38,989 nt of DNA, from positions 1-38,989 of IMG/VR virus record IMGVR_UViG_3300044267_006294. One strand, 5' to 3'. Positions 4,092 through 34,400 of this stretch are shown in pieces (the first letter of the stretch is position 1; every line of letters starts with the position of its first letter). The DNA is from a virus (lineage: Duplodnaviria > Caudoviricetes). Under the pieces are notes generated by a model. The model worked only from the letters and a program-made list of their open reading frames with translations. It was not told where the DNA came from and ran no database searches. A program made the position numbers and the translations under genes.

Positions 4092-4500
4092 TACTTTTCC
4101 TGTGCCTGTCGTCTTAACCGGTCCATTAAGGTTCTATAGTCGCCGCCCTCTTCAGGGCGTTTCCATGACCCCTGAGCAAAACTATCGGCTTCTTGCTGTG
4201 TATCGAAGCTAAACAGCTCGCCTCTTTCCCGCGCCATTTCGAAAGCCTCTGAACCGGCTAACTCGACCCAGTCTTGCGGGTCGGGGCTTACGTTCTCTGG
4301 ATCTCTCGGGAATAGAGTCGGTAGCGCGTAATTGTCCATCGAAGTCATTAAAACTGTCGACGTAGTGCCGTCCGGGTTCTGACGACTCACGGGTCGCATT
4401 TGATGGACTTTTCGGGAATACCGACGGTGCTGCCTGCGCTGCTGCGACATCAGCCTTCCTCTCGGATGGGCGAGTCACCGCCTGCTGCCATGCTGTCTTC
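4036..4500. repeat. 47-bp direct repeat, copies at 4036-4082 and 4454-4500 (1 mismatch)
   Basis: CCTTCCTCTCGGATGGGCG(C/A)GTCACCGCCTGCTGCCATGCTGTCTTC read at both positions. Confidence 0.97.
4091..4450 (-). CDS. hypothetical phage protein (NPDGTTST...PTLFP...RGE..F...A..FA.GSWK) lying between the direct repeats
   Basis: TGATG coupling to the portal stop and TAATG coupling to the mini-ORF. Confidence 0.8.
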   Translation of the reverse strand: MSQQRRQHRRYSRKVHQMRPVSRQNPDGTTSTVLMTSMDNYALPTLFPRDPENVSPDPQDWVELAGSEAFEMARERGELFSFDTQQEADSFAQGSWKRPEEGGDYRTLMDRLRRQAQEK

Positions 4501-6177
4501 TGGGGCTGCCGGCTGAGCCTCTCCACCACCCCCGCCCATTAGGGCTACGAGCTCTGGTGGTAGGCCGCCTTCTGCTCCCATCGGCGGGCCGCCCCCGCCC
4601 GGTGCGCCTGCTCCGCCCATCGCAAGCTGCTGCGCCATCTGGGCTTCTGCTTGCGCGGCCATTGCCACATCTTCCTCGGGCATGAGAAGTCCCATCGGGA
4701 GACCGATACCCTTCACGATCTCCTCGGTCAGGCGTCGACCGTCGACATTCGGGTCTTGCTGGAGCAGCGGGATGAGCTGAAGCAGTGTCTCTACCATGAC
4801 TGCTGGGTTGGTCTTGATGGGGTTGTAGCTAACCATCTCGAAGTCTACTTCGACATCAGCGATGGTGGAGATGTCTACCGCAGCCCACTTTCTATCCCCG
4901 GCGACACGGATCATCTTTTCGCCCTTCATGTACTTACGGCACAGGTAGAAGCACTTTGCAGCCATGTCTTCCATGGCGTCGTTGATGTGTCCTTCTCGCG
5001 TGGCCAGACGGTTCTTCATCTGGGCATCGATGATCGCCATTTCCGTAGCGGTTCGAGCTCCGACCACTTGCCCACGAGCAGCTTCAGCCAGGGCTGAGAT
5101 GAACGCGGCATCGTCTTCTTGCCGGGCTACGAACTCTTTTACACCCTGCGGGTTCTGCGGGTAGGGCATCTCGTAGAACAACGATCCCAGTGAGCGCAGT
5201 GCTTCGGAGTTCTGCGGGGCGATGCCCACGAAAGATCCAGCTGATGCGGCTACTGCCTTGTTTAGATCTTCCTCACTAATGCGCCCGGCGTCGTAGAGGA
5301 CTCTGGGAATCATAAGATAGGTGATACGCTTCATATGCGTAAGCAGGTCGTTAACCGTCTCTTGCTGGGTCAAGACAAGCTGTACTTCGCTCAGCCCCAG
5401 GCAGTCCACGCCCGACTGGTTGAGGCTGAACATGGAGTAGGGGATGTAGTCAATGTCGTCTTCGAACACGACCTTGTCGAGCTGCCTAACGTAGTGCTTG
5501 ACCTTGTTGGTCTCTCGATCGTAGTACTCCCAGACTGTGATCCACTCGAAGGCGTCGCGAACGGCGTTGGTCTCACCGCGCTGCTTCGAGCCGAGCATCC
5601 ACTTCGGGAAGCGATCTGGCTGAACATCGTCCAGCTTGGCGTCGTAACGACCAGACTCCACACGGGCTTTGAACTCGGAGAAGGGGACGACGGTGGCTTC
5701 GAGCCAGTACTTAATGTCGTCAACGTCGCGCACAGTAAGATCGAAGAACACCGTAGAGGGATCGCAGACCTTCACTACGGGCCTGTCTTCTGTCTTGTTC
5801 CAGCTGGTCTTGAAGATGCCTCGCTTACAGAGAACAGCGTCGATCAACGCTGTTGCTGCGCGTCTCCGCATGCGGTTGGAGCGGAAGACGTACTCGAGAA
5901 GTCCTGTTACGGACGGCGACTGGTCCTGGCTACGGGCGTTGCGCGGGTTAGCTGCCACCTGGGGGTTGGGTCCCAGAAGAGCAGAAACCGCAGTATCTGC
6001 GATAGCATAGATAAGATTCTTAGAACACAGGTGAAGGTTTGTGTTCGTGTCGAGGTCCGTAGACCGCTGCGTCCAGAAGTCTCCCCGGTAGTACCGACGG
6101 GCCTTGTCGAAGATCTCCTTCTCCTGGCTCTTGTAGAACTCCAGGTGGCGATCGATAAGAACGGAAAGCTTAGGCAT
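4450..6177 (-). CDS. portal protein (P22/podovirus-like)
   Basis: 575 aa just downstream of TerL; RRYYRG, NLIYAIADT, GIFK..W, VWEYYD, RG...RTATE motifs; Gln/Gly/Met/Pro-rich tail. Confidence 0.9.
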   Translation of the reverse strand: MPKLSVLIDRHLEFYKSQEKEIFDKARRYYRGDFWTQRSTDLDTNTNLHLCSKNLIYAIADTAVSALLGPNPQVAANPRNARSQDQSPSVTGLLEYVFRSNRMRRRAATALIDAVLCKRGIFKTSWNKTEDRPVVKVCDPSTVFFDLTVRDVDDIKYWLEATVVPFSEFKARVESGRYDAKLDDVQPDRFPKWMLGSKQRGETNAVRDAFEWITVWEYYDRETNKVKHYVRQLDKVVFEDDIDYIPYSMFSLNQSGVDCLGLSEVQLVLTQQETVNDLLTHMKRITYLMIPRVLYDAGRISEEDLNKAVAASAGSFVGIAPQNSEALRSLGSLFYEMPYPQNPQGVKEFVARQEDDAAFISALAEAARGQVVGARTATEMAIIDAQMKNRLATREGHINDAMEDMAAKCFYLCRKYMKGEKMIRVAGDRKWAAVDISTIADVEVDFEMVSYNPIKTNPAVMVETLLQLIPLLQQDPNVDGRRLTEEIVKGIGLPMGLLMPEEDVAMAAQAEAQMAQQLAMGGAGAPGGGGPPMGAEGGLPPELVALMGGGGGEAQPAAPEDSMAAGGDSPIREEG

Positions 6178-6344: not shown

Positions 6345-7982
6345 TTACATCCAGTTCCTCGGGGGAGGCTTAAAGAGGTTTCCTGCTTCTTTAGTAGACT
6401 TGCGCTTGTAGCGGTCCAAGTCTCCTATAGTCAGCTGCCCAGCAGGGCGCTGGTCTATTTCCGGTTGGATATTAGCGCGTGTGAAGTGTCTGCGCGAGAG
6501 AATGTCCGCCGCCATGATAGCCGTTCGGGCACGGTCGAAGTGATGCGTGGTACCGTCTTGGCCTTTTACGCGCTTATTATTAGTGCCGTCGTAGTTAACG
6601 AGTTGGTGCAACATGCCTCGGGAGATGATGTCTATCTCTTCTTCTCGCAGTAGCTGGACGAGCATCGCTTCTGCTTCCTGAATCCTCTTGGAGGTGGCGT
6701 ACCATCCGGGGTGGTTCCGATTCGTCCACAAGAGGCTCGGGCACTTCTTGTCTTTAAGAATGGCAATACAGGCCATAGCGTTGGACTCTACGGCTATTAG
6801 AGCTCCGTTGTAGTGTCCTTGCACCCTCATTAGTCTTGCGGCAAACCGTCCAGGGTCTTCTCGATCTTCCCAGAAAGCTACCTCTTTTCTTGTAACAGCG
6901 TCCCAGACAGTCAGCGCGCTCTTATCTCCAGAGCGACCGTAGCCCGCGGGGTCAGCCGTAATTAGGTAGGAGCTGTTGTTTTCTGGCATGTCTATGACGC
7001 AACAACCCAGCGGGCCCTCGGGGGGATCTGGCTGAGACTTTGCCAGCAGCGGCTTTAAGACGTCAGCGGGCATGACGGGTGCGAGAGAGCCTAGCCAGCC
7101 ATCATACGGGTCGGAAGGGTACTTTGCGCAGAATAGCCGGGAGTCTCCTACGAACTCTGTGTTCAGAGCGCTGCGTCTGAAGGCCATGTTCTGAAGAGTC
7201 ATGCCGTCGTGCTGCGACATGTAGGTCTCTTCTTCAGAAGTGATGTCGGAGAGCGGAGCCTCTATGGCACAGCTGTTGTCCTTCCACCAACTGAGAAACA
7301 CGGGGTTAAAGCGACTCTTTCCCTCCAAGGCCATCTGCCACATGCGCTCGTGGTGCGAGCCTGCACGACCAGGCGTCGACTCCAGTATGACGCGGGCATT
7401 GGGTCTCTTATTGACTGTCGGGAAGATATTGATAGCGGCCTTCTGCTGCCACTGTGCCTCACCAAACTCGGTGATGACGAGACGGTCGATCGAGCGACCG
7501 ATGGCTGGAGAGCGCCCACCGGCTGTGAGGACCTTGATTCCTCCGCCGTGGCAGAAGTGCATCTGCGTAGTTCCTGCCTTCCTTCCCTTAGCCAGGGGCA
7601 CGCGGACGTCGTCGGGGAGTCTTTTATAGGCGTATAAGATACGCTCGAAGATGTCTTCGGCTGTGTCTTGACGCTCTGCGATAAGCAGCCCCTTGACTCC
7701 TTCGAGGTACATGCAGTCGCGCAGCAGGAGCATAACGGAGATCGTGGTAATCTTCGCCTGGCGGAACTTGTTGACGATGTTCCAGCGATGTTCATGGTAT
7801 GCGGTAATCAGCTGTTGCTGTGTGCTGGTAGGGGTCAAGAAACCGCTGGACTCGTCTTCTCTGACAATCTGACACATCGACACGAAGGCGTCGTAGGTAG
7901 CGAACATCGCCCGCACCTTGGACTGGTTTAGTGATGCGTGTTGCGTGAGCTTTGCGCCATTCGGAAGGGCTTTTAAATCCAT
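6345..7982 (-). CDS. terL: terminase large subunit
   Basis: ATPase motifs VNKFRQAKITT (Walker A region), LVITE (Walker B) and ILESTPG; RNase H-like nuclease motifs LITADPAGYG..GD.S, AVESN, HHFD. Confidence 0.92.
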   Translation of the reverse strand: MDLKALPNGAKLTQHASLNQSKVRAMFATYDAFVSMCQIVREDESSGFLTPTSTQQQLITAYHEHRWNIVNKFRQAKITTISVMLLLRDCMYLEGVKGLLIAERQDTAEDIFERILYAYKRLPDDVRVPLAKGRKAGTTQMHFCHGGGIKVLTAGGRSPAIGRSIDRLVITEFGEAQWQQKAAINIFPTVNKRPNARVILESTPGRAGSHHERMWQMALEGKSRFNPVFLSWWKDNSCAIEAPLSDITSEEETYMSQHDGMTLQNMAFRRSALNTEFVGDSRLFCAKYPSDPYDGWLGSLAPVMPADVLKPLLAKSQPDPPEGPLGCCVIDMPENNSSYLITADPAGYGRSGDKSALTVWDAVTRKEVAFWEDREDPGRFAARLMRVQGHYNGALIAVESNAMACIAILKDKKCPSLLWTNRNHPGWYATSKRIQEAEAMLVQLLREEEIDIISRGMLHQLVNYDGTNNKRVKGQDGTTHHFDRARTAIMAADILSRRHFTRANIQPEIDQRPAGQLTIGDLDRYKRKSTKEAGNLFKPPPRNWM

Positions 7983-8027
7983 GTGGGTACCTTAACATGA
8001 TATAAGAGATCGAGAGAAGGAGCTGCT

Positions 8028-8183
8028 ATGGCTATAAGCCCTGAAGTTTTGAACACTACCTATCCAAACCCTGGGCCCAACCGGGCGGATTGGCGGAAGA
8101 AGAACCTGAAGAAAGTGGCTAAGAAGCTTCGCGCTAATGACCCTATGACGATCAAGAGTGGTCAGAAGCTGAAGACTTATTAA
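8028..8183 (+). CDS. 51-aa Lys-rich protein with MCP-like N-terminus: MAISPEVLNTTYPNPGPNRADWRKKNLKKVAKKLRANDPMTIKSGQKLKTY (not in ORF track)
   Basis: AAGGAG SD 5 nt before ATG 8028; TAA at 8181-8183; AAG-rich codons like the other small genes. Confidence 0.8.
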   Translation: MAISPEVLNTTYPNPGPNRADWRKKNLKKVAKKLRANDPMTIKSGQKLKTY

Positions 8184-8230
8184 AATAAAACTACTAAATA
8201 GTTGCATCGATTATTTGAACGGTGTAGATT
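8177..8230 (+). promoter_or_regulatory. sigma70-type promoter for the MCP operon with AT-rich UP element
   Basis: TTGCAT (8202-8207), 17-nt spacer, TAGATT (8225-8230); A-tracts at 8177-8200. Confidence 0.7.
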
Positions 8231-8236
8231 TTCCAC

Positions 8237-8404
8237 AGCACCCGAAGTGTCGTTGAGTAGCCCGTAAGGAGCTCAACATAAAGGCGCATGCGGGCAGGCA
8301 AGACAGCCCGGTCAGTTATGACTTTCAGGTTTTGTTTCTCGACTTCAAAGTCGGGGCGTAGAACTCGTTGTGAGCCTGCCGTCCCGCATTTCAAAACAAG
8401 GTGC
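8237..8404 (+). ncRNA. putative structured 5' leader RNA of the capsid operon
   Basis: Several nested complementary segments read by eye (see findings); no plausible ORF; no family assigned. Confidence 0.5.
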
Positions 8405-8409
8405 ATTAA

Positions 8410-9468
8410 ATGTCCATCTCAACCGAAGTATTGAATACTACGTTTGCAGACCTTCGCGGTCCGCTCGTAAATTCTTTTGTTCGGAGCAATGAGCTGTTCG
8501 ATGCGCTGAACACCAAGGCTCGCATGCCCATGGAAGGCGGCTCGTTCATCGAGCGTTCCTTCAGTGGCGGTGCTCCAGCTCGCGGTGTCGGTGTATACGT
8601 CGGCGATGAGCTCCTCAACATGACCCGTCGCCAGCAGGTGAAGAAGTTCCAGGTGGAGCCTCATCGTCTCGTTGTCGCCGTCAACATCCCCAAGAAGGAA
8701 CTCCAGATGAACAGCGGCAAGCTTGCTGTGGTTCGTCTTATCGAGGAGTACCCTCAGACGGTGATGGAAGGCGTCAAGGCTGACATCAACGCTTACATGC
8801 TTACCGGCGCTAGCCGCGGCATCGTGTTCCAGACGGCTGAGCTGAAGGGTCTTATGACTCTGAACGGTCAGGTGTCGAGCGGTATCGGAACTGGTGTGAC
8901 CAATGGTCTACTGGACTTTGATACTCCCGCTAACCAGACGGACACGGTTCAGAACGTGGCAAAGAGCTCCAGCTATTTCCACTTCAACCAGAGTGCTGAC
9001 ATCACCAGCTGGGCTACTCACGGGCTGTCGCGTTTGCGTCAGTGCTACCGTCAGGCAGCTCACTATGCTGGCGGACCTGGCAAGGGACCAGATCTCTGCA
9101 TCATGGATGATGACACTTATGCCAACTTCGAGGCTTTCAAGCGCGATGCAGTCCGCATCCAGCTTATCGAAGACAAGACCGAGAAGAGCAACATGCTCGG
9201 ACTGGACCTTGGTGTGGCTAAGGTGTACTCCTCCCTGGACTTGGATCGGACCGCTTCGACCTTCTCTGGCGTAGCTAGCGACGGCGTTGCTTACATCCTC
9301 AATACTGACTACATCGAGATGCCTATGCACGAGGCTCCAAACATCAGCGAGTTCAAGGAACGAGTTGGTGACCAGGACGTCGTCACAGCTATCTTCTCGA
9401 TGCAGGCCAACCTTATCAGCACAAAGCTTCCGGCACAGGGTGTCGTGAGTGGCGGCGCTAGCGCTTAG
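8410..9468 (+). CDS. major capsid protein (HK97 fold, capsid_maj_Podo-like)
   Basis: 352 aa; LNTT...GGxxI...YxGxExL...ELxxNSG...GL...DL...YILNTDY pattern; strongly biased codons; follows a strong promoter. Confidence 0.9.
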   Translation: MSISTEVLNTTFADLRGPLVNSFVRSNELFDALNTKARMPMEGGSFIERSFSGGAPARGVGVYVGDELLNMTRRQQVKKFQVEPHRLVVAVNIPKKELQMNSGKLAVVRLIEEYPQTVMEGVKADINAYMLTGASRGIVFQTAELKGLMTLNGQVSSGIGTGVTNGLLDFDTPANQTDTVQNVAKSSSYFHFNQSADITSWATHGLSRLRQCYRQAAHYAGGPGKGPDLCIMDDDTYANFEAFKRDAVRIQLIEDKTEKSNMLGLDLGVAKVYSSLDLDRTASTFSGVASDGVAYILNTDYIEMPMHEAPNISEFKERVGDQDVVTAIFSMQANLISTKLPAQGVVSGGASA

Positions 9469-9477
9469 GAGGTCATT

Positions 9478-9999
9478 ATGGGAACTGTGAAAACTGACGC
9501 TATTGACGCGACTTATACCTATGAAGCTTACCCTGTAGGCACTCGGTACGTGCAATCTGCTGACGAGGTAAACGCAGCCAACTCGACTCACTACGGTGAC
9601 CGAGAGTGGATCTTCGTTTACAACGACGACTCTTCGGCTTTCGCTGAAGGTAACGTGATCATGCTGGATAACAGCGATTACGCTCCCTTCCACGGACTGC
9701 TCTCCACCGCGACACTTCATGTGTATCGGATTCTTGGAGTGGCGGCTCATGCGATTGCTGCAGGTTCTTATGGCTGGATCATCGCTAAGGGTGCGGGTGA
9801 AGTTCAGTGTGACGGTGGTGTTGCTCAGGGTGACCGTTTGGTTGCTCATGCAAGTACCGCGGGTATCGCTGATACAATCACCCTGAATGCCGACGCAACC
9901 ACCGACAACCTCGAGTGTGTCTTTGCTATGGCTCTTGAAGCCGATGCAGGTTCTTCTTCGGGAGACAAGGCCACTTGCTGGATCAACGGTGTGTGGTAG
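9478..9999 (+). CDS. capsid decoration/cement-like protein
   Basis: Directly after MCP with AGGAGG SD; GTR...REWIFV...GVA..AIAAGSYGWI..G motif typical of post-MCP genes. Confidence 0.7.
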   Translation: MGTVKTDAIDATYTYEAYPVGTRYVQSADEVNAANSTHYGDREWIFVYNDDSSAFAEGNVIMLDNSDYAPFHGLLSTATLHVYRILGVAAHAIAAGSYGWIIAKGAGEVQCDGGVAQGDRLVAHASTAGIADTITLNADATTDNLECVFAMALEADAGSSSGDKATCWINGVW

Positions 10000-22442: not shown

Positions 22443-25400
22443 ATGTCTGACGAAACAGATGTCCTGAGTGTCGAAGAGCCTGTTGTCGAAGAAAAGTCAG
22501 CGGCAGAGCTCGCGGAAGAGCGGATTAGGGAGCTTTCAGGCGATGTAGATTATTCTATAGAAGAGGGGTTGTCTGTAGGACAGGCTCGCGGTGCTGAGGT
22601 CGAGGCTAAAAAGGCCGCTATTAAGGAGCGTACCGAGACTATCGATCAGTTGGACGTTCGAGGGCTGTTGCACTCTGTCAGTTACGGCAGGAGTCAACAG
22701 ATAAAGGGCGTTGTAAAACAAGGCTACGAGTCCCCTGACTCCATCTTAGAGAGTCATGCAGCGCGCGTTAATATGACTCCGATGGAGCTCCGCGGGAACC
22801 TGATAAAGTATGGGTACGGCTGGGAGTGGATGGCAGACGCCGTCGGTCGCGAGGGTCGTTCTGTAGATGATGTTCTTAAAGAGGCGAAGTCTCGCGGAAC
22901 AGTTGCTCTGCTCCCTGAGCGCGAGCGGGAGATCCGCATGCGCGGAGAGTCTCTCCGCGACGTCGCCGTTGATAAGTATATCGCGAAGGGAGAGGCTATC
23001 CCCGACGCGTTCCTTGACGACGCGTTTGTCGTGTCAGACACGCGTAACGCCATCATCGGTATGGACGCGGACGAGGAGGGCATGGCGGACATGTTCTCCG
23101 GCGAGGTCGGAAAGGACAAGGTCCTTAGCCGCCCAGGAGAGAAGGGCTACATAGAGGCGCAAGTAAACTCAGAGATGCTTCTCAGCATGCCCGATATAGC
23201 CCGGCTCGTTACCGAGTACAGCGGCACAGCGATGGGCGGAGACCAGTACCTCCGCAAGCGGAAAGAGAAGCTCTCAGCAGAGTATGCCCGCATCAACGGA
23301 AAGGAGCCCGACTTCTCCGCGGTCCGTGCTATGCACATGCAGGCAGCCAATGAGCTCGCTACTTTTAAGGTGGTGGGTGTCTGGCACTCGCCGATCTTTC
23401 TTAGAAGCGACACGCTCTTGCCTAAGGAAAGAGGCACCGATGCTCAGGGGCTCAGCCTCTATGACGCGTTTGCGCCTACCGTAGAAGTTATCGGCGTAGA
23501 CAACAAAGGTCGCTTTGTTATCCGCGAATCCACCGCGATGTCTCACCTGTTCGATAAAGCCGACGCAATGCAGGCAGGTGTTGTAGGCGCAGTCAAGTAT
23601 GGCGGCTGGGAGGGAGCGAAGCGGGGTATCGCGGAGAATCGAAACTTTCTTGAGGCTTCTATAGAGACAGCTTCTGCTGAGGACTTAGGTCTCTTCGGAA
23701 TGTCCGTGGCTGGCGGCGTGGGCCTACTCGGAATGGTGGCTTCTCCTGACCTGCTCTTTAGCGCTGCAGGAGCGCCTAAGGAGTTGAGAAAGGTTCAAGA
23801 CACCGTCAGGGTCATGAAGGGCGGGACCCAAGCGAGCAAGGCTCTTGAGACTATGCTCACTGCTTATAAAGCACAAGATCCTGCCGCTTTCGCGAGGCTG
23901 AGCAGACAGTTTGCTGCCGAGCACAAGCTTAGTGCAGAGCAGATAGACCAGCTCACAGTGAGCTTGTCTCCGCTCATGCAGAAGCAAAACCCCGACATCG
24001 GGGGAGCCGAGGGCATCGCCCTGGCCAACGCCCTCCCAGGGAAAGCGGGTGAGCTGCGGGTCAACCTTGCTCCAGAGATTCGCAAGGTGCAGTCTAAGCT
24101 GTCTACTAAGCCCGCGAGTGAGAAGGGTCAGAAGCCTCCGAAGAAGGGAGAAAAGCCGAAGAGACCTTCTGCCGCCGAGGAGACACCAGGTGTTACACCC
24201 GACCTCTATGATTTCGAGCGTCAGCTTAAGATCATCGAAGACGAACGAGAGCTGATAAACCTCAAGGGTATCGACGACGCCTCCTTCAGGGGGGTGCTTG
24301 ATAGAAAGATAGCTCTTCAGCGCACGGAGCTGCATAAGATACTGGAAGACGTCGGTCCTTCTAAGCAGGCTTATGAATATCGTTCTCAGCTCGGCGAGTC
24401 CCTGGGCGACGCCATGCGAGACCCCAACGCTTGGTACAAGAGCCAAGAGGATATTCTTCGGCAGTACGATGGTATGGCGCGCACCTATACCGGCAAGAAG
24501 AAAGACGCCCTTAAAGCGATCGATGACCAGGTAAAGGCTGGTGCGATCGACAGCAAGAGAGGCAAGGAGCTCAAGAAGGAGATCAACGCCGCGGCCAAGG
24601 CGAGACAGCAGGCGTATGAAAAGCTCCGCAAGATTCGAGACGAGGCACTGAAGCTGAAGCAAGAGATGCCCGACAAGGCAGCTCAGCTTGCTCTCTTAGA
24701 TCGAGCCGAAGCGGCTGTGATGACCAACATGGAGACGCGTGCCGCGGCCTCGTATGTCTTCTACAGCACGTTGATGGACAAGCTAAACCCGTATGGGAAG
24801 AAGCTGCTTGGCGTCGGTAAGAAGCGTACAGATCTAATAAAGAAGACTCTCGCAGATGACCTGGAGGCGTATGCAACACTGAGTGAGAACGCCCTTAAGT
24901 TTACTAAGCAGGCTATGGATAACTTTAATGTTAGCCGTAGTGAGGCGCTGAACGGCGCGCGTTGGTTAGAGTCTCGGGCTCGCCAAGCGGCGCGTAAGAA
25001 GGGAATCACTGTCGACGAGTGGTGGGAAACCCGCATTAAGGGCATCGAGTCTCGAGAAGACATACAAAAGATCACACAGGGTACCGGCGGTAAGAAGCCT
25101 AAGGACGTTGACGAGGGTGAGGAAGTCGTCGAGGAAGTCGTCGAGGAAGTCGTCGAGGAAGTCGTCGAGGAAGTCGTCGAGGAAGTCGTCGAGGAAGCAA
25201 CGGACTTTTCTGAGGTAATAACCAAGGCTTTGTCAGACCTGGAGAAGGCTATAGAGCCTTTAGACGAGCAGACCAAGTTTCTTGGAAACGCCTACAACAG
25301 GGTCAATAGAAGTGCCCTGAGGGATGTACTTAGCTCTTATTCTACTGTTAAGTACTCCGACGATATGGATGTCTTCCTGGAAGACTTGTCCAAGACCATA

Positions 25401-28400
25401 CGAAGCAACCAACAAGACATCGCCAAGGTCACTGACCTGCGGGCTAAAAAGGATTCTTCTCTTGCTGCGCAGAAGCAGGCTGAGCTGCAGAAGGTTCTGG
25501 ATACAAGAAACGAGATTGATCGGCTGCTCAGAAGTGTGCAAGACAACGCGAGCAATATCAAGCTTGAGCCTGCGCCTCCGATCAAGCCTGTTCCTTCTGT
25601 TGAGGAGCTAAGCCTTCCTCCTGCGAAGCCGCTCCCCGAGCCGCCGAAGGGTATGCCGAAGGCCAACAAGAAGGGCTTCGGTTACACGGAGCTGTCTCCG
25701 CTTGCTCTTGAGAAGGAGAACAAGTTCCTCGCCGATATAGGCGAAGAGATCTACACTCTCGACAGCTACGATTATTACACGTTGACGGTGGGCCAAAGAA
25801 AAGCACTAATAGACTTTCAAAAGGGCTTTTTAAATCGCATAAGCAACCGCCTTGAAAGTGTTCGGAAACAGGACTTTCCAGACATTGTTTTTCGTCTTCA
25901 GAAAGGCGTCTTCTCTGAAGTACGGACGATTGTTCCTTTAGATCTCAAGGGCAACCTTATCGCCCGCGCGGATGTCCCTGAAGAACTTCAAGAAGTCATA
26001 CGCCAATTCGAGGAGGCCGATGCCTACCTCAGCAGCTCTCAAGTGCGAGCAAAAAAGCGAGGCCTTGCGCCCAGGGAGTTGTACGATCACCTCGTCCAGT
26101 TCGATGCGCGCGTCAATCCCGATGCTCGACTTAGAGATGCTGTGCAGTGGCTGTATGACCACGGCCAGAACGCCGGATGCCGAGCTATCTGCCGACGATT
26201 GATTCAATCAGGCCAGATAGACGAGGGGGCTAGGTTCTTCGTCTTGAACGGGAGTGGGGCCTTAAGTATCGGCAAGCTCGACGCCTTTCTTGTCTCTGCG
26301 GGGGAGAGCAAAGTAGGGACAAAGCCGAAAGATTTCCGAGGCCTTGCGTCTGGGGATTATGGCACAGGCTTTTCTTGGAACATCGTCCGCGGTAGTGGAT
26401 ACAAGTCGACAGGGCTTACGGAAGAGACCATAGTCCACGAGATGCTCCACAACGCCACGTCGGAGGTCCTTCACCTCGCCTTAGTGCGTGGTAGGGGTAC
26501 GCCGGCTGTCAGGAAGGCGGCGAAAGACCTGGATGATTTCGCGGTACAGATCTACGACATCGCAGAAAAGGAAGTCAGACGGCTGAAAGCCAAGAAGGGT
26601 AAGACGTTTGAAGAGGAGAGGCGGCTTTCAACAGCTAAACACATTCTCAAGCCATATGTTCTCGGCAGCGGAAAAAGAGATGAGGTGATCAACCAGTTTA
26701 ACCGTAGCACAGAGCTCGTCTCTTACGCGATGTCAGACCCTGAAATTCAAGTGTTCCTTCGCAGCATCCCTATCGAGGAAGTTCTAAAGGCAGGCGAAGA
26801 GCCACGCACGATGCTCGACAAGTTCGTGGAGTTGATCGGCAGGCTCTTCTCCCCCGGAGGAAGGAAGCTCCCCGCGGTGGAAGAGAACGCCTGGCATCGA
26901 GCGCTTCTTCTTTCAGAAGACGTGCTTGCCGCATCAACAGCGCAGTCACTGTTCGCAGAGAAGACAACGGGTGTCAAGAACACGTATGCCGCCTGGCGGT
27001 CTAATGACAGCTACGAAACTACGGTATTTCTCGAGGACGTCAACTTACTGGACGCCTCGGTCTATGGAGACTTCAAAATTCAGCGTCAAGCCCTTAACGA
27101 CGATCTTTTTGAGGCTTTAGCGTATCACCACAGCTTCCTGTCAGGACGGAGCTCGGTTCCGCCTTCGGACCTACGGCTCTCCGATCTTCGGAAGAGTCTC
27201 GATGCGTTCGAAGCGGGCTTGCCCAAGGTTCTCGAAAAGGTCGATGCCGCAGCGGCAGACCTCGCGCTGAAGACAACTGAGAACGGGGCCTTTGGCAAGA
27301 ACCTCAAGGACACAGAGTACGAGATCGCCCTCAGCGCAGAGGGAAGCGCTGTACGCAAGAGCGCGGATGAGGGGTTCGTTTATCCCAAGAAGTACGCGAA
27401 GCTGACCAAAGCAGAGCTTGAAGATCTTGTCGTTAGTCTGAATAAGACCTTGAAGGAGCGACCTTCCGAGGGTGTTGACGCGCTCCGCACGGCTGCTTTC
27501 GACGAGCTTATGGATCTCCCCTTTATAGACGGGCTGAACTCAGCCGCAGGAGACTTCCGGTATATCAACGACGTAGATTTCTGGGAGATGCACAATCTCC
27601 CGAAGACAGCCACGCTTCAAGAGGCAGCGGACACGCACCTGAAGGCGTTGAAAGAGCGGCTAAAGGAGCAACAGATTACTTTCGATCAGAAGGTCGAGCT
27701 TAAGACAGAGCTTCTGAAGACTAAGATAACTGGCCTGCTTGAGCGAGAGCACGCTGCTTTTCGTGCCTTCGCTGCGGATATACGGAAGGACGACCTGTTC
27801 TCTGCCTCTCTCTACGATGAGCCTTTGTCCGCACTCGATCCAGGGGCGACTCGGGCTGCTGAGGAATCCAAGCTGTTTGATGATGCTGAACTGGCAGCTC
27901 TTAAAGATAGATCAAGGAGAACCAGCACCCAGGCGCAAGAAGGAATCACCCCAGCAAATGTAGGAATCAAGGGACTTTCCGAGGAAGGCTACGGGGATGT
28001 TCTTAGGGCAAATCCCACAGGACGTGCTGCTGCCGAGTACATCGTACAAAACGCGGACAGTGCCTCTTACCGTGTCATTGCACAGCGAATCCTTCCTTAT
28101 TTGGATGATGTGGAAGTCAAGGTTGTGGGCATGGGAGACGCTGCTCCTACCTCGATAGCTCATGGATTAGCCGCTGGGCGTAGTGAAATAGTTAAAGGAG
28201 AAGCGGGAGCGACGGTATGGATTCGGGGCATTCCAGGTTCTGCTTCGGGGCTAAAAACAGAGACTGTTCTGCACGAGCTTCTGCATGCTGCAACACAAGC
28301 TCGATTGAAGGACGCACAATATATAAAGAACCAGGACACCCGACTTGGTGCTGCTTGGACTGAGCTGAGAGAGCTTACTGGCGAGGTTATTCCTGAATGG

Positions 28401-31400
28401 CAAAAGAGAATAGATGCAGGTAAACCTGTTGGACCGCCATCGTACATCAACATGGATGAGGTCATTGCGTGGGGGCTGACCAACAAAGAATTTCAGGACT
28501 TCCTACAAGGAATTAAGCTGGAGGGAAACCAAACGGCCTTTGATAGGTTTGTCAATATCGTAGCTGCTCTGCTCGGTATCTCTACGCGGGAGAAGACCGC
28601 TCTAACGGAAGTCATTCGACTGACGGACGACATTCTCAAGGCTCCTCTTGAAGAACTTCCTCTCCGTAAGTGGACTGTTTCTGGAGAAGCGGGAGAAGTT
28701 GCTACTCAAGAAATGTCTGCTGTACGGGCTGCTCCTCCAGAAGCGCCTGTTGGAGGATATGCTCCTTTCTACAGTGCTCTTGAGCGGTCTGCGGAAGCTC
28801 TTCCAGACAAGATCGGCGTGTCGGAGATCTTGCCGCTTATCAAGAAGCAAGACCTGCCCGGTGTGGGCAGGGTAAAGCAAGAAGAGATCAAGTACACCCT
28901 CATGGAGGAGTTCGTAGAAGACCTCCTTGCCGATGGCGTGAAGAGCATCAGCAAAGATGACCTGCTCGCGTACATTGGAAAGAACCGAGTCACTGTAAAA
29001 GAATCAGCACCCGGAGGAATGTCCAGAGAGATGAGGCTCGCTCAGGCAAGAAAGGACAATGCGTTCAAGGGCGTAGAGCAGTCTTTAAGGGACATGGGCT
29101 ATACAGACCAAAGACTTCACAACTTCTCCGCGGATTCAGCGACAAGAACCGCCAACGAGCTTCTTGAAGACGCGCTGGGTTTTAGTCGAGCTGCAAGCAA
29201 CTTAAGGAATAAGGTTTACCGTCAGCGGTCTCGGTTGGAAAGCGCCGTTGACGCGTTAGGTCCGGTCTCTGGCCGGCAGGCTATATTGGAGGGCGGTCCA
29301 GTCTCCCGCATGGCCGCTTCTAAAATTGGAGAGTTAATAGACGACATCGGAGAGACAGGTCTCAGAGCTATTACAGGAGACGAGTTCGTCGATGCTCTGA
29401 AGGCAGATCGCGCTACTAACTTGTGGCCCGGAGTGGAGCCTTATGCAGGCCCAGAGAGTGCGCTAAACATTACTCCCAGGGCGAAGCAAGAGCTGTCCGA
29501 TGTTCTTAGACAGAAGGGACGCTTCTTTAAAAGAGTCGAGGAAGCCGTAGAAAGAAGGATCATAGGTTATTTTCACAAAGCCGATCTTCCTCAAGCGCCC
29601 AGGGGAGTCGTCGATGCGGAGAAGATTCAGAGCACGATCGAAGCTATAAAGACGAGGTTATCGGAGTACCAGAAAAGGCCCTCCTTCAGGTATCAACTCG
29701 AACGGTCTGATATATTAGACGATGACTTCTTTAATTTCGATATCTCTGCAGGCGCGGCTAGGGTAGAAGAACGAAAACTCTTTCTCGCATCGCCCGAGTG
29801 GAAGGCTGTTGAGGAAGCAGACCGGCAACGGAAAATCGTATTCAATGCCTCCCCTATCGAGACTTTAGGACCCCACTACCCCAGCTACGTTTCAGGAGAC
29901 ACCTCGAATTTAAGCAATACTTATAGAGAGATCTTGATCCAAAAGCCGCCTCCTCCTCTTGAAAGGCCCAGAACTGCTGCTGAGAAGAAAATAGACAGAG
30001 AGCTGGACGTTCTTATCACCAACTTCTCTCAATTCGACGCGGTAGACATGGACGACGCTTTTGCAGAGATTATGCAGAAGTACCCCGACTACACGCCCCC
30101 TCTATCCCCAGCAGGCTATGAGCCCTACAAGTCCCATAACTGGGATTTCGGGGATGTGGGGTACGACGACATCGTTGTCCACATTCGTACTCGGGACATT
30201 AAGGACGCGGAAGGCAACAAGGTCCTCTTTGTAGAAGAGATTCAATCCGACTGGCATCAAGAAGGACGGGTTCAGGGATACTCCGCAGAAGAGAATCGGG
30301 CTCTGAGAGAGAAGTTCGATAACCAGATGCGTGCCCTTGACGAAGAAGTGAAGAAGGTCACCGACGCTTGGACGTATTCTTTTGTCGAGAAAACCGACGG
30401 CTTTCCTCCTACTAAAAAGTTGTTTGTTGAGATAGACGGGACAGATTTTCAGAAAGTCTCGATTCCTGCGGATGTAATAGGCCAAGCGGGTCGAGCGGCT
30501 GGGAGCTCGGGGGATTACGCTCGGCAGGCAGTTCGCAACATGTTTATGGGCGCGCGTCCGGCGTCTGGATTCAATTCCTTTTTTCGGTCTCTCGAGGAAG
30601 CGGGAGTAGATCCCTCCGTCTTGCAACTACGAGATAGAGCGCAGGCTATCACTAGAAAGCAGCGAGCGGTTGTGCGCGGTCCTTTGCCCGATGCTCCCTT
30701 TAAGAAGACTTGGCCCAATGTCGCAGTCAAGCGGCTCTTACACTTAGCCGCCGAAGAAGGGTACTCCTCTATCGCGTTTACTAAGGGAGACGTCATTCAC
30801 GAGCTGGTGGGCGGCGGGCTATCTGGACAGGAGTACTTCTACAACAAGGTCCTTCCGAAAGTTATCTCTAAAGAAGCAAAGAAGGTAAACGCTACTGTAG
30901 AAGTAGTAAGCTCCCCGATTGGTGGAAAGGCGCTCACCGGCGGCTTAGATTTTGGAACGACAAAGAACGCAGACATCGCTCGGTCCCTGGAGGAGGGCGT
31001 TGTTACCATAAAGCTATCTCCCGAATCCAAGAAGATTGCTGAGAAGGGCCGTCCGCTGTTCCAGAAGCGTATAGAGGACGGCGTCGAGGTCGAGAAGTCT
31101 TCTGTCTCTTTCATGGAAGACGGACGCGCTGTCATTCGAGCTATGGAGCAGCCTGACTTCTCCTCGCTGGTCCACGAGATCGGCCACATTATCCGTCGGG
31201 ACATGGAGCCCGATGAGCTGGATGAGTACATGCTCTGGCTCACGGGTGAGCCGCACAAGCTTAAGGTTGAGGTAGAAGGTTCTCGCTTGGTCGGCACCGA
31301 CGCGGTGAAGGCCGAAGAGCTCTTCGCTTCTGCTTTCGAAGCGTACCTACGCGATGGTATCGCACCTACTAAGGGCATGATTAAAGTGTTCGAGGACGCG

Positions 31401-34400
31401 AAGCGCTTCTTGCTCACGATCTACGCCACTCTCGTCAAGCCCGATCAAGACAAGATTCAAGTAGTGCCCGAGGTGTCGGCGCTTCTCGACAAGATGCTGG
31501 GCGAAGTGCCCAGCCATAACACCGGGTTCAATCGACTAAGCAAGGCTTTCAAAGACGAGGTTATCGGCTCAAACTCTGGGCTCGGTGAGGTCAGCGTAGC
31601 TAACCGCGTGGCTGAGGATATGCGTCGTATTCTCCCGAAAGGTCAGAAGGCTTTCACGGAGGAGAAGGTTGCAAAGAAGATTGCGGAGCTACAGGAGCAG
31701 GTCAACTCAGGGGCTAAGACCTCTGAGGAGGCTGTGCTTGAGCTCCCGTTTAAGATCTTCTACAACCGCTTTGAGGACGGCAAAGACACCTTTACCCTTG
31801 AAGAGATAATCCGTCTGCAAGAGACACTCGAAGCAGAGAGGATACAAGCTCTTAGGCAGTCGTTGCCTGAGGTGTTTACCAAGGACAAGGTTAAGGCTGT
31901 GACGGAGCTTGACCCTGCCGAAAAGATTATGAACGCTCTGTCGGGCCCTGGCTGGACTAAGCAACTGAGCCGTGCCTGGATGTCCACTATCTTCGGTGGA
32001 GATGCGCAGAAGATAGGGCAGAAGAGCTTGCGTACATTCCCGCCGCTTCTTCGGTCGGACATCCACGCAGGAGGTCGAATCATAGAGCAGGCTTATGGTG
32101 AGACCGTTCGTCTGGTCGGAGAGGGAGACTGGGATAAGATCACAAACTACCTGACCGGGGAGCTGACTACCTTCAAGTTTGGCGGACGACAGCTGTTCTC
32201 CAGCGGCCACGACATGGCTAACGGTGTTTATGAGCTTATCCGTAGGGTGTCTGACGAGCTGAAACCAGAAGAGCTCGAAGCGATGAGGTATCTCTTTGAG
32301 GAGACCGGTCCTTGGCGAAGAGCTGCAGACGCAGACACCGCTGAGGTGAGGCTCTTCGATGACGTCTATGAGCCTATGCAGCACTCAAACCCCGATGCTT
32401 CTCTGATCGGAAGAACGGCTATTGAAAAGCTACTGGGCTCGAGCGGTACGTCTCTGTTTATGAAGGACATGGCTGGGGCGCTCGGCTTCGAGTCGAGACT
32501 GACAAGCCAGCAGTTCCGTTTCTTAGAAGGTCTGTTTCATGCCGCAGGGGTCACCACGAGAGACGGAAAGTATGTAGACACCGCTACTAAGGCAGCTCGA
32601 CAGAAGACCTTGCAAGGGCTGTTCTCTGATACCGCAAACTCTTTCGGCGACCGTGTCGGAAGCATGAACAAGTCCCGTCTTGCGATTCTTATGGCAGGTC
32701 ACGGAAACGTAAACAGGATCTACGAGAAGTGGTCTGTGCAAGGCCTGGCAATCAAGGAAGACGTCAAGGTTGCGTTCTTAAACTGGTCTAACGGAGAGAA
32801 GATTTCCGACGAGATGCTGCCCGAGGTTCAGAAGGTCACGAGGCGGTACGGTCTAAACGCCCGGTTCTTCGAAGAGCCTGCTATGGACACGGGCTACTTC
32901 TTGCCAGCGATTGCCAGGGACCGTCTTGCTGAGGCGCTTGCTCGCGGTAAGGAAGGCACTTGGAATCTTGCTGATGCCCTGACTAAGTCTGAGCGAGACA
33001 TGGGGAACGTCTTCGGTGGATTCTATCGGTACATGAAGCTGCGCATGACCCGTGGCGCCTTCGCGGTTCGTCAGCGGTACTTCTTCATGAACACCTTGGA
33101 CCACTTTAACCAGATGTCCATGATCACCGGTTTCCGCCCGGCGCTGGTCTCTACTATACGCGTAGCCGCACAAGATGTGATGGCTGTGCCCCTGGTGTCG
33201 AGAAGCCTGGCTATTCTGGAAGCTACGGGCGCGAAACCTCAGGCTATGGAGAAGTTTCGACGAGTTCTTCAGAGGGGCGGCGACAAGGCAGCGAGGGCCG
33301 TCGGCAAATTGCTTCGTGTCTCTAAGTACAGGTTGGACTTGAACGGTATCCTCGATGGATCTGTAGAGGTTGTGACCCTTAACAACAGAACTTACAGCGC
33401 AAGAGCTATCAGGGACGTCATGGTCGAGGAGGGGATCTTCGCCTCCTTCGACACCACTCAGCTCGCTAACGTGATCAAGAAGTCTGCTGATATGTCCCCC
33501 GGTAAGAGTTATCAGCTTCCTTGGAACCTCCCCGCAATCAATCCAAAGCAGCTCGCAGAGAAGGCCGAGGACGTTCTTCTTAAGAGCGTGACGGAGACAG
33601 CAGAGGCATGGTCCGAGCGTGAGCGCGCAGGTGCGATGCTAACCCTGATGGAGATGGGCATGTCTCCGAGGGCTGCTGCTCGGACTACCATTGACGCGCT
33701 CTATGATTACGCGGGTTCTATGTCCCGGATGGACCGTGCTTGGTTTGTCTCTTTGCTGTTCCCCTTCTGGGCTTTCCAGAAGAACGCGAATAAGCAGGTC
33801 GTAAACATGTTGTTCAGCCCTGCCGGTGTGTATCGGATGGGCGTTCTTCGCCGCGCGGAAGAGGGAATCCCTGAGCTCTACGCAGCCTTGATGTGGGAGC
33901 ACATGACGGGGGAGGACCCTTACGGTGTCTTCGATGTAGACAGCCTGCCTCAAGAGGTTCGAGACCAGTACTACATATATCGAGACCGACTCGAGAACGG
34001 CTACGGTCCTATAGAAGACCTCTCCCCTGAAGAGCAACAGCGTCTCTTCATCGCTTATGGAAAGACTTTAAACCAGCTAACGCCCGAGGAGATCTCAGTC
34101 ATAGAGAACGGATTCGGCTCTCCAGAGAACATGCCTGAGGAGCTCAAGACAGCAATCCGACAGCTGTTTACTACAGGAAGACACGGCACCTTCAAGGCAG
34201 CGGGCAAGATTTACCAGGTAGATCAGTTCCTGGAAAAGTACGCTGGATTTAATGAACCTACGCAAGCGAGCCTTGAGCTGCAGACTTATGTCATCCCGAA
34301 GCCTGATGTGTCTGGCAGGTCCTCTTACGTCAGAGATCGAGCCGGCTTCTTTGTCCCGCCCGCGATGACCGAGAATGTACGAAAGTACTACACCCACACG

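Follow-up and report, generated by a model that had tools for sequence, protein, structure and literature searches.

A conserved small phage gene at the head of the structural block encodes a likeness of the capsid N-terminal arm joined to a basic segment

The window analysed here is the whole of IMG/VR record IMGVR_UViG_3300044267_006294, a linear stretch of 38,989 nucleotides with a CheckV completeness estimate of 56%, in which a small gene stands at the start of the rightward block of structural genes, upstream of the gene for the major capsid protein (MCP) and divergent from that for the large terminase (Table 1). An SU10/P22-type portal at 4450-6177 agrees with the SU10-like MCP, and a single ORF of 4227 aa occupies 22443-35126 of the plus strand within the virion gene block, with no Pfam family at E <= 0.001. 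As the sequence-only reading of this DNA had claimed, the small ORF has 51 codons, an ATG start and a strong Shine-Dalgarno sequence; GAGG, GGAG or AAGG is found at the equivalent place in most relatives of the gene. Its translation is MAISPEVLNTTYPNPGPNRADWRKKNLKKVAKKLRANDPMTIKSGQKLKTY, and the remainder beyond the N-terminus is Lys-rich and basic, again as that reading had described, the protein containing 12 Lys and Arg residues against 3 Asp and Glu (net charge about +9). Residues 19-36 may form a helix, judging from the amphipathic basic pattern KRxxLKxLVxxRxKK of relatives. Searches of Pfam, PHROGs and PDB sequences with members of this small family gave no match for any member searched, blastn of 7600-9600 against cultured phages gave zero matches, and the top score in the ESM Atlas (0.77) was under the lead threshold.

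Table 1. Features at the small-gene locus (positions of the window).
Feature	Position	Strand	Basis and remarks
Large terminase, divergent (context)	6345..7982	-	phrog_2, E 3.4e-22; start 45 nt from the small-gene start
Shine-Dalgarno sequence AAGGAG	8017..8022	+	5 nt ahead of the small-ORF ATG; read directly
Small gene, 51 aa plus stop	8028..8183	+	ATG start; unnamed family of 35-60 aa phage proteins
Codons 1-13 (MAISPEVLNTTYP)	8028..8066	+	putative copy of the first MCP N-arm helix, closed by Pro13; best-conserved part of the family
Residues 19-36 (RADWRKKNLKKVAKKLRA), Lys/Arg-rich	8082..8135	+	alignments and charge count
Promoter-like block TTGCAT, 17 nt, TAGATT	8202..8230	+	conserved in L009, L010, L012, L014 and L019; putative function
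MCP, 352 aa, HK97 fold	8410..9468	+	phrog_9953 'major head protein', E 2.8e-19; AlphaFold2; Foldseek
MCP residues 1-17 (MSISTEVLNTTFADLRG), N-arm start resembled by the small protein	8410..8460	+	small-family profile, E 8.9e-5

The stretch 7900-9500 was present nearly whole (at least half of the sampled words) in 18 run rows from marine, seawater or aquatic metagenomes, and whole or in part in 20 run rows from 16 studies, 13 of these rows being possibly the source of the same DNA. Two DNA runs revealed five single-base differences within the small ORF and no indels; by our reading two of the differences are synonymous and three are not (I3M, P17L and Y51S). Contigs from the metatranscriptome runs X19 and X20 covered parts of the MCP gene and none of 8028-8183, which has no bearing on expression of the small gene in either direction.

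The gene that follows encodes a protein whose AlphaFold2 model contains the N-arm, spine helix, P domain and A domain of the HK97 fold. The model was built on a 125-row alignment, used instead of a shallower one of 22 rows that had given a pLDDT of 32.3, and reached a pLDDT of 91.4 and a pTM of 0.88, with a helix at residues 5-13. Foldseek retrieved 377 PDB chains with it at E <= 0.001, the best being the capsid protein of phage SU10 (7z48_F, E 2.7e-12), and the 42 matches listed comprise nothing but shell proteins of the HK97 fold, namely capsids of tailed viruses, that of HK97 among them, and one encapsulin. The MCP begins with MSISTEVLNTTF, and among its relatives, 190 of which were found at E <= 0.001 by a library-wide HMMER search, the start M-A-[VI]-S-x-[DE]-[VL]-L-N-[ST]-T-L-x-[DE]-L is kept down to about 23% overall identity in the 125-row alignment. 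The sole cultured phage with a tblastn match to the MCP was Bradyrhizobium phage ppBjS10J-1 (OP596615.1, 4878-6948; locus L043; 24.6% identity), whose MCP start (..GEIITTTLRNR) retains part of the N-arm motif. Directly 5' of its MCP gene lies a 361-aa Ala/Glu/Pro-rich gene annotated as 'hypothetical' and scaffold-like in position and composition, of which the window has no counterpart beside the MCP gene.

Between the small gene and the MCP gene, positions 8184-8409 of the window form a long conserved MCP leader, in which the promoter-like block comes first. A consensus promoter scan does not call this block; if it is a promoter, the MCP gene has one of its own and the small ORF is not an MCP leader peptide. 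The possibility of a leader peptide or upstream ORF was rejected, given that 226 nt with the promoter-like block separate the two genes, and in one clade three genes do so. The roughly 150 nt that follow the block fold to -62.3 kcal/mol (z -2.9), and in the consensus structure of six leader sequences 5 of 40 pairs are preserved although both of their bases have changed. The outer helix joins GCACC (8238-8242) to a GGTGC that overlaps the MCP ribosome-binding site AAGGTG (8398-8403), so that translation of the MCP may be gated by the leader fold. Positions 7900-8500 gave no match in Rfam.

The likeness between the two proteins was exactly as the sequence-only reading had counted it, nine of the twelve residues at the start of the small protein (MAISPEVLNTTY) being identical to those of the MCP. 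Among 77,908 twelve-residue windows taken from all six frames, the one in the small ORF is alone in having 9 identities to the MCP start, the runners-up having 6 (one window) or 5 (25 windows). A scoring matrix made from 16 distinct motifs, without the window and L028 lineages, was also run over the 54,520 stop-free eleven-residue positions of the six frames, and the small ORF ranked first with 16.5 bits, followed by the MCP start with 14.6 and a third position with 9.5. A chance likeness is rejected by these two counts. The corresponding DNA is identical at 24 of 36 bases (22 of 33 over codons 3-13), and over codons 3-13 the same codon is used for just three of the eight identical residues; the five synonymous differences pointed out before (ata/atc, agc/tca, gtt/gta, aac/aat and acc/acg) are all present. 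A DNA-level element was rejected as an explanation, the motif being constant under many synonymous changes, and so was recent gene conversion from the MCP gene, the identical residues sharing 0-4 codons per genome.

The profile behind the match to the MCP N-terminus in Table 1 (A1) includes the window member. In three relatives in which no small gene was found, the MCP N-terminus was the sole match of the profile, and in five near-complete relatives profile A4 found the small gene in all five, together with the MCP start in three. Neither the matrix scan of the window nor the A4 search of these five relatives revealed a third protein with the motif, and each genome has one copy of the small gene. 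The likeness of the small protein to the MCP is thus family-wide and at the protein level; the matrix scan, the profile match and the codon comparison uphold the earlier claim that the peptide, and not the DNA, is what has been conserved. In several lineages it extends past residue 12, to ..DL[RK]G. In L028 the small protein reads ..TTLSDLRG and its own MCP ..TTFSDLRG, and extended starts are also found in L052 (..TTYSDL), L080 and L108 (..TTRSDLRGG), L100 (..TTLPDLQ) and the L016 group (..TTRPDLK). Because of these extensions, it is reasonable to suppose that the MCP 5' end underwent a duplication of about 17 codons, probably once, and that the copy was afterwards kept at the protein level.

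Relatives of the locus were collected in two scans of viral contigs. The first, made with the MCP, gave 37 loci (MCP identity 62-100%), and a small ORF was detected upstream of the MCP gene in 26 of them by motif search and in a 27th (L013) by profile. The second, made with the MCP alignment, found 168 relatives, of which the best 80 were kept; with duplicates removed, the whole collection comprised 80 distinct MCP loci, 78 of them with an MCP long enough for a tree. The family profile detected the small gene at >20 bits in 39 of the 80 loci (37 of the 78 tree loci). A profile search of a library of 5.8 billion proteins yielded 157 candidates, including 54 proteins or clusters of 35-83 aa at E <= 0.1, whereas a single-protein search of the same library returned the protein's own cluster and one variant only. 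Conservation of the gene in relatives, which the sequence-only reading had proposed as a test, is borne out by these 39 loci and 54 library proteins.

Conservation in the family is highest in the motif, whose consensus is MIGTDVQNTT[LR]P. In a 53-row alignment V7, T10 and T11 are invariant and M1, I3, G4, D6 and P13 are kept at 90% or more; a variable linker follows (often PAKAxPA) and then the amphipathic Lys/Arg-rich stretch, the tails of the 53 sequences varying widely. Among 18 pairs from two subgroups the Nei-Gojobori method (NG86) gave 17 dN/dS values and one saturated dS. Fifteen of the 17 values are <=0.26, the others being 0.38 and 0.67, and the range is mostly 0.03-0.38, the value of 0.67 coming from a pair with just 10 changes. 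In the first 12 codons synonymous changes exceed non-synonymous ones (for example, 7.0 versus 0 and 10 versus 2). The ORF at 8028-8183 is a real, conserved gene under purifying selection, and both the anatomy and the selection to be expected if a mimic of the N-arm with a basic tail has a function (the helix copy, the basic stretch and the low dN/dS) are supported.

A degenerate DNA pattern for the motif detected 28 stretches in the viral collection, 27 of which fell in newly fetched loci. The MCP of this clade follows the small ORF within about 0.35-1.4 kb in 22 of the 27; among the other five, three end before any MCP, L128 is a chance match in a longer ORF and L132 has no regular-expression match. 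On these data, only phages with this MCP have the small family. Among 7998 candidates scored in a search for longer or fused members, none reached E <= 10, which is weak evidence, and a metagenome scan with A4 gave 84 pattern matches with one confirmed, the confirmation relying on the divergent member of the window. One contig of 1259 nt encodes a variant of 83 aa (protein P0002), produced by a deletion behind residue 46 that fuses the small ORF with another frame running across the MCP start; this is either a rare form or an artefact of assembly.

Co-variation of the small protein with the MCP N-terminus of its own genome, which the sequence-only reading had put forward as a test, proved weak. 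For 30 distinct pairs the mean BLOSUM62 score was 26.07 with the own MCP versus 25.81 after shuffling, and 173 of 5000 shuffles reached the observed score in a statistic that ignores kinship in the tree; the MCP N-terminus is nearly invariant in the present set of loci. All three lineages with Ser13 in the MCP (L028, L052 and L056) also have a small protein with Ser at the corresponding position, and because L052 and L056 are sisters these matches amount to at most two events, no more than a hint of co-variation.

The gene was not found in 41 of the 80 distinct loci, absence meaning that it was not detected in the 1.1-3 kb upstream or in the rest of the locus, with the whole contig searched in four records. 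In one complete genome of 68.8 kb with terminal repeats (G002) the family had no match except the MCP start. On a maximum-likelihood MCP tree of 78 rows, presence and absence require six changes (bootstrap range 5-6), and well-supported branches force at least four gains or losses. A clade of 29 loci is without the gene; L028 carries it, unlike its close sisters L079 and L084. The small gene is therefore a dispensable accessory and not a core part of assembly, since it is absent from 41 of the 80 relatives, including the complete genome G002, and heads must assemble without it in G002 and in the close sisters of L028. A scaffold, being required for assembly, would be expected in every relative that shares the MCP, and the small gene does not have this distribution. 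In genomes that lack it the spacing between terminase and MCP genes is only about 180-260 nt.

These data bear on the alternative of a decaying remnant, which the sequence-only reading had itself listed, for an MCP duplication at an inversion breakpoint, among the things that would overturn it. The ORF would then be a functionless leftover at a site of recombination, derived from duplicated MCP 5' sequence or from an MCP gene since replaced. The gene does adjoin the MCP gene at a divergent gene junction, and it is likely to have originated as a duplicate of the MCP 5' end. However, the frame is intact, with SD-like sequences, in 39 of the 80 distinct loci, dN/dS is well under 1 and many synonymous changes lie beneath a constant motif. 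The second module, the basic stretch, is conserved too, and in one clade the gene is located about 1.1 kb 5' of the MCP gene, among other genes. We rejected this alternative, which is extremely improbable in view of the dN/dS values, the 53-row alignment and the intact loci.

In that same clade the small gene comes directly after a gene of 72-87 aa and is followed on its 3' side by a 129-aa gene and a DUF5872 gene, and the slot between terminase and MCP genes is variable among relatives in general, unrelated small genes occupying it too. In L017 (1601-2770) it contains the 72-87 aa, 129-aa and DUF5872 genes, the first of which gave a weak Fusellovirus VP2 match (E 0.012, below the cut-off); L006 has a 109-aa glycine-zipper gene at about 2271-2815, and L024 and L027 have a basic gene of 57-59 aa upstream of the MCP gene. 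There is a weak likeness between the basic stretch of the small family and the C-terminal part of the 72-87 aa protein (..KRTLLKQIVLARTLGK..). The family profile matches this C-terminus at 6-11 bits in 17 related loci, and hhalign gives a probability of just 15%, so a link between the two may be considered a weak lead.

Variable slots of this kind are also typical of host-interaction genes, and capsid proteins trigger some bacterial defence systems. The small protein could accordingly be imagined as an anti-defence decoy, a free copy of the N-arm that would occupy a host immune sensor of newly made MCP and so blunt abortive infection. A small, dispensable and patchily distributed gene in a variable accessory slot between terminase and MCP would fit such a role, but the N-terminal motif is much better conserved than an arms race would lead one to expect and the basic tail would have no part to play, and we give this explanation little credence.

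The sequence-only reading had put forward three possible roles, namely the addressing of a basic cargo peptide to the prohead, the filling of N-arm sites at the portal vertex and a decoy that regulates assembly. Our tentative reading, whose chances we judge to be somewhat below even, is that the copied N-arm helix docks the small protein in the procapsid; the protein would then end up in the head interior as a non-essential basic peptide that faces the DNA. If the N-arm helices lie, as we presume, on the inner face of HK97-type shells and serve as docking sites in the procapsid, as N-arm helix alpha1 does for the scaffold of phage 80alpha (PMC5644958), then a free copy of the helix would go where the MCP helix goes and occupy the docking site of the MCP's own helix. 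A docked copy would bring the +9 tail to the inner surface of the shell, with the tail toward the DNA. What we infer here is that the small protein binds the MCP or procapsid, that it is packaged into the head, that its Lys/Arg tail touches the DNA and that the gene arose from about 17 duplicated codons. The net charge and the position at the head of the structural block are the layout to be expected of a packaged peptide. Several points run counter to docking: only about 8 helical residues are copied before Pro13 ends the helix, and so short a piece may fail to bind alone; the motif is present on one protein and not on a set of cargo proteins; and the gene is situated in a variable slot.

The same sequence evidence (the motif, the profile and the helix) would serve equally for a modulator of assembly that is not packaged, in which the free helix competes with the MCP N-arms for the scaffold, the portal or a neighbouring subunit and thereby tunes nucleation, timing or capsid size. 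Small proteins that compete for one site on a capsid protein are known from phage 80alpha and SaPI1, whose protein CpmB competes with the 80alpha scaffold, as described in PMC5644958, and a dispensable gene is compatible with such a role. Against it, nothing in the window could be recognised as a scaffold gene (29 proteins searched in Pfam gave neither a protease nor a scaffold family, and 25 scanned in PHROGs gave no scaffold), and a competitor has no obvious need of the +9 tail. We regard a modulator of this kind as rather unlikely. According to the same account, the C-terminal helix-and-hook of the 80alpha scaffold binds helix alpha1 of the MCP N-arm in procapsids (PMC5644958), and the 80alpha scaffold and CpmB are small proteins that affect capsid assembly through a short terminal helix at the N-arm (PMC5644958), a mode of action akin to the one proposed for the small protein. 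Their helices bind the N-arm, whereas the window protein copies it, and CpmB is the product of a satellite gene, whereas the small gene belongs to the phage itself.

Phage 80alpha also offers a model for another explanation, that of a shared N-terminal recognition signal through which a single protease, chaperone or modifying enzyme, of the host or of the phage, would act on both the MCP and the small protein. The 80alpha capsid and scaffolding proteins are described as having an N-terminal motif of ribosomal protein L27 that is cleaved by the host protease Prp, the N-terminal sequence of the scaffold being necessary for assembly (PMC5744158); in this phage two head-assembly proteins have a short N-terminal sequence in common (PMC5744158), as do the MCP and the small protein of the window. 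The motif lies at the extreme N-terminus of both window proteins, and the MCP has F12-A13. Nevertheless, the small proteins have Y-P, L-P, R-P or L-S at this place, so that an F|A site shared by both partners is not found, and Peptidase_S78, ClpP and S77 gave no match at E <= 1 in the five gene-bearing relatives searched, of which three have a completeness of at least 94%. The 80alpha motif mimics a host ribosomal protein and includes an F|A cleavage site, whereas the window motif is part of a helix conserved across the MCP superfamily, which favours a structural role over a removable tag; the partner in the window is a dispensable 51-aa basic peptide, and that in 80alpha a scaffold. A common recognition signal thus appears quite improbable.

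The closest functional model for the docking reading is the capsid targeting sequence (CTS) of phage T4, which directs encapsidation into the scaffolding core (PMC3012670). CTS proteins are described as diverse small proteins, packed with the DNA in the head, that have a short conserved N-terminal peptide (PMC3012670), and a conserved start with a variable tail is common to them and the small family. The CTS is common to several cargo proteins, however, whereas the window motif is present on the MCP and one other protein only and copies the MCP itself; neither a set of cargo proteins with the motif nor a prohead protease (S77, S78 and ClpP searched) was found. Outside the tailed phages, in a different virus realm, the microvirus phiX174 encodes protein J, a very small and highly basic DNA-packaging protein with a short capsid-binding end and a DNA-binding remainder. 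It would resemble the small protein, for which binding is proposed, in being a small basic protein with one short capsid-binding end, and differs from it in that its virus has ssDNA and the capsid-binding end is C-terminal.

A further comparison is provided by T4 gp61.1, a protein of 54 aa annotated as 'hypothetical protein' (AF158101.6, 18966-19130; L121), whose residues 2-38 are identical to residues 57-93 of gp23 (L122, 946-2511) at 17 of 37 positions (E 1e-9). Like the small gene of the window, gene 61.1 is a short ORF standing by itself, in which a copy from the N-terminal region of the phage's own MCP is joined to a charged Lys-rich tail, so that an MCP N-terminal copy with a charged tail is found in both. 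The two proteins are not homologous (hhalign probability 0.2%), and because of this the layout must have arisen at least twice, as a likeness of design only. The segment copied in T4 is preceded in gp23 by a leader and by about 56 residues in all, gp23 is annotated as cleaved by the gp21 protease and the tail of gp61.1 is mixed Lys/Glu; in the window the copy is from residue 1 and no known protease family was found. By tblastn, gp61.1-like sequence was detected in 1487 phage records. The literature search found no published function for gp61.1 and, in a coverage that left out most subscription journals, no description of a free-standing copy of a capsid N-arm. The earlier statement that no described case was known accordingly holds for the literature covered, but T4 gene 61.1 has the same layout and the 80alpha capsid and scaffolding proteins have N-terminal motifs in common.

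This likeness raises the idea that capsid self-mimicry is a general and overlooked design, in which unrelated phages (marine SU10-like podophages and T4, with its gene 61.1) would have independently joined a copy of their own capsid N-arm to a charged tail, either as an address for N-arm docking sites inside the head or as a blind for a partner or host sensor that reads the N-arm. The idea is doubtful, and if true it would define a new class of head-internal or decoy peptides by their mimicry of the capsid protein. It is testable in a standard laboratory phage, because T4 gene 61.1 has the same layout.

The small gene represents a new protein family, within the theme of short terminal addresses and mimics in head assembly, and its interest lies in the self-mimicry together with the independent recurrence in T4. 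Small proteins are often overlooked in phage annotation, and this family is widespread in marine viral contigs and clearly selected. If the N-arm copy is an address for the head interior, it would provide a protease-independent way of loading a peptide into an HK97-type capsid, and the first N-arm helix would be a docking element in a large, uncultured MCP superfamily; should its role be that of competitor or decoy instead, phages would have in it a new means of regulating assembly or of hiding the capsid protein.
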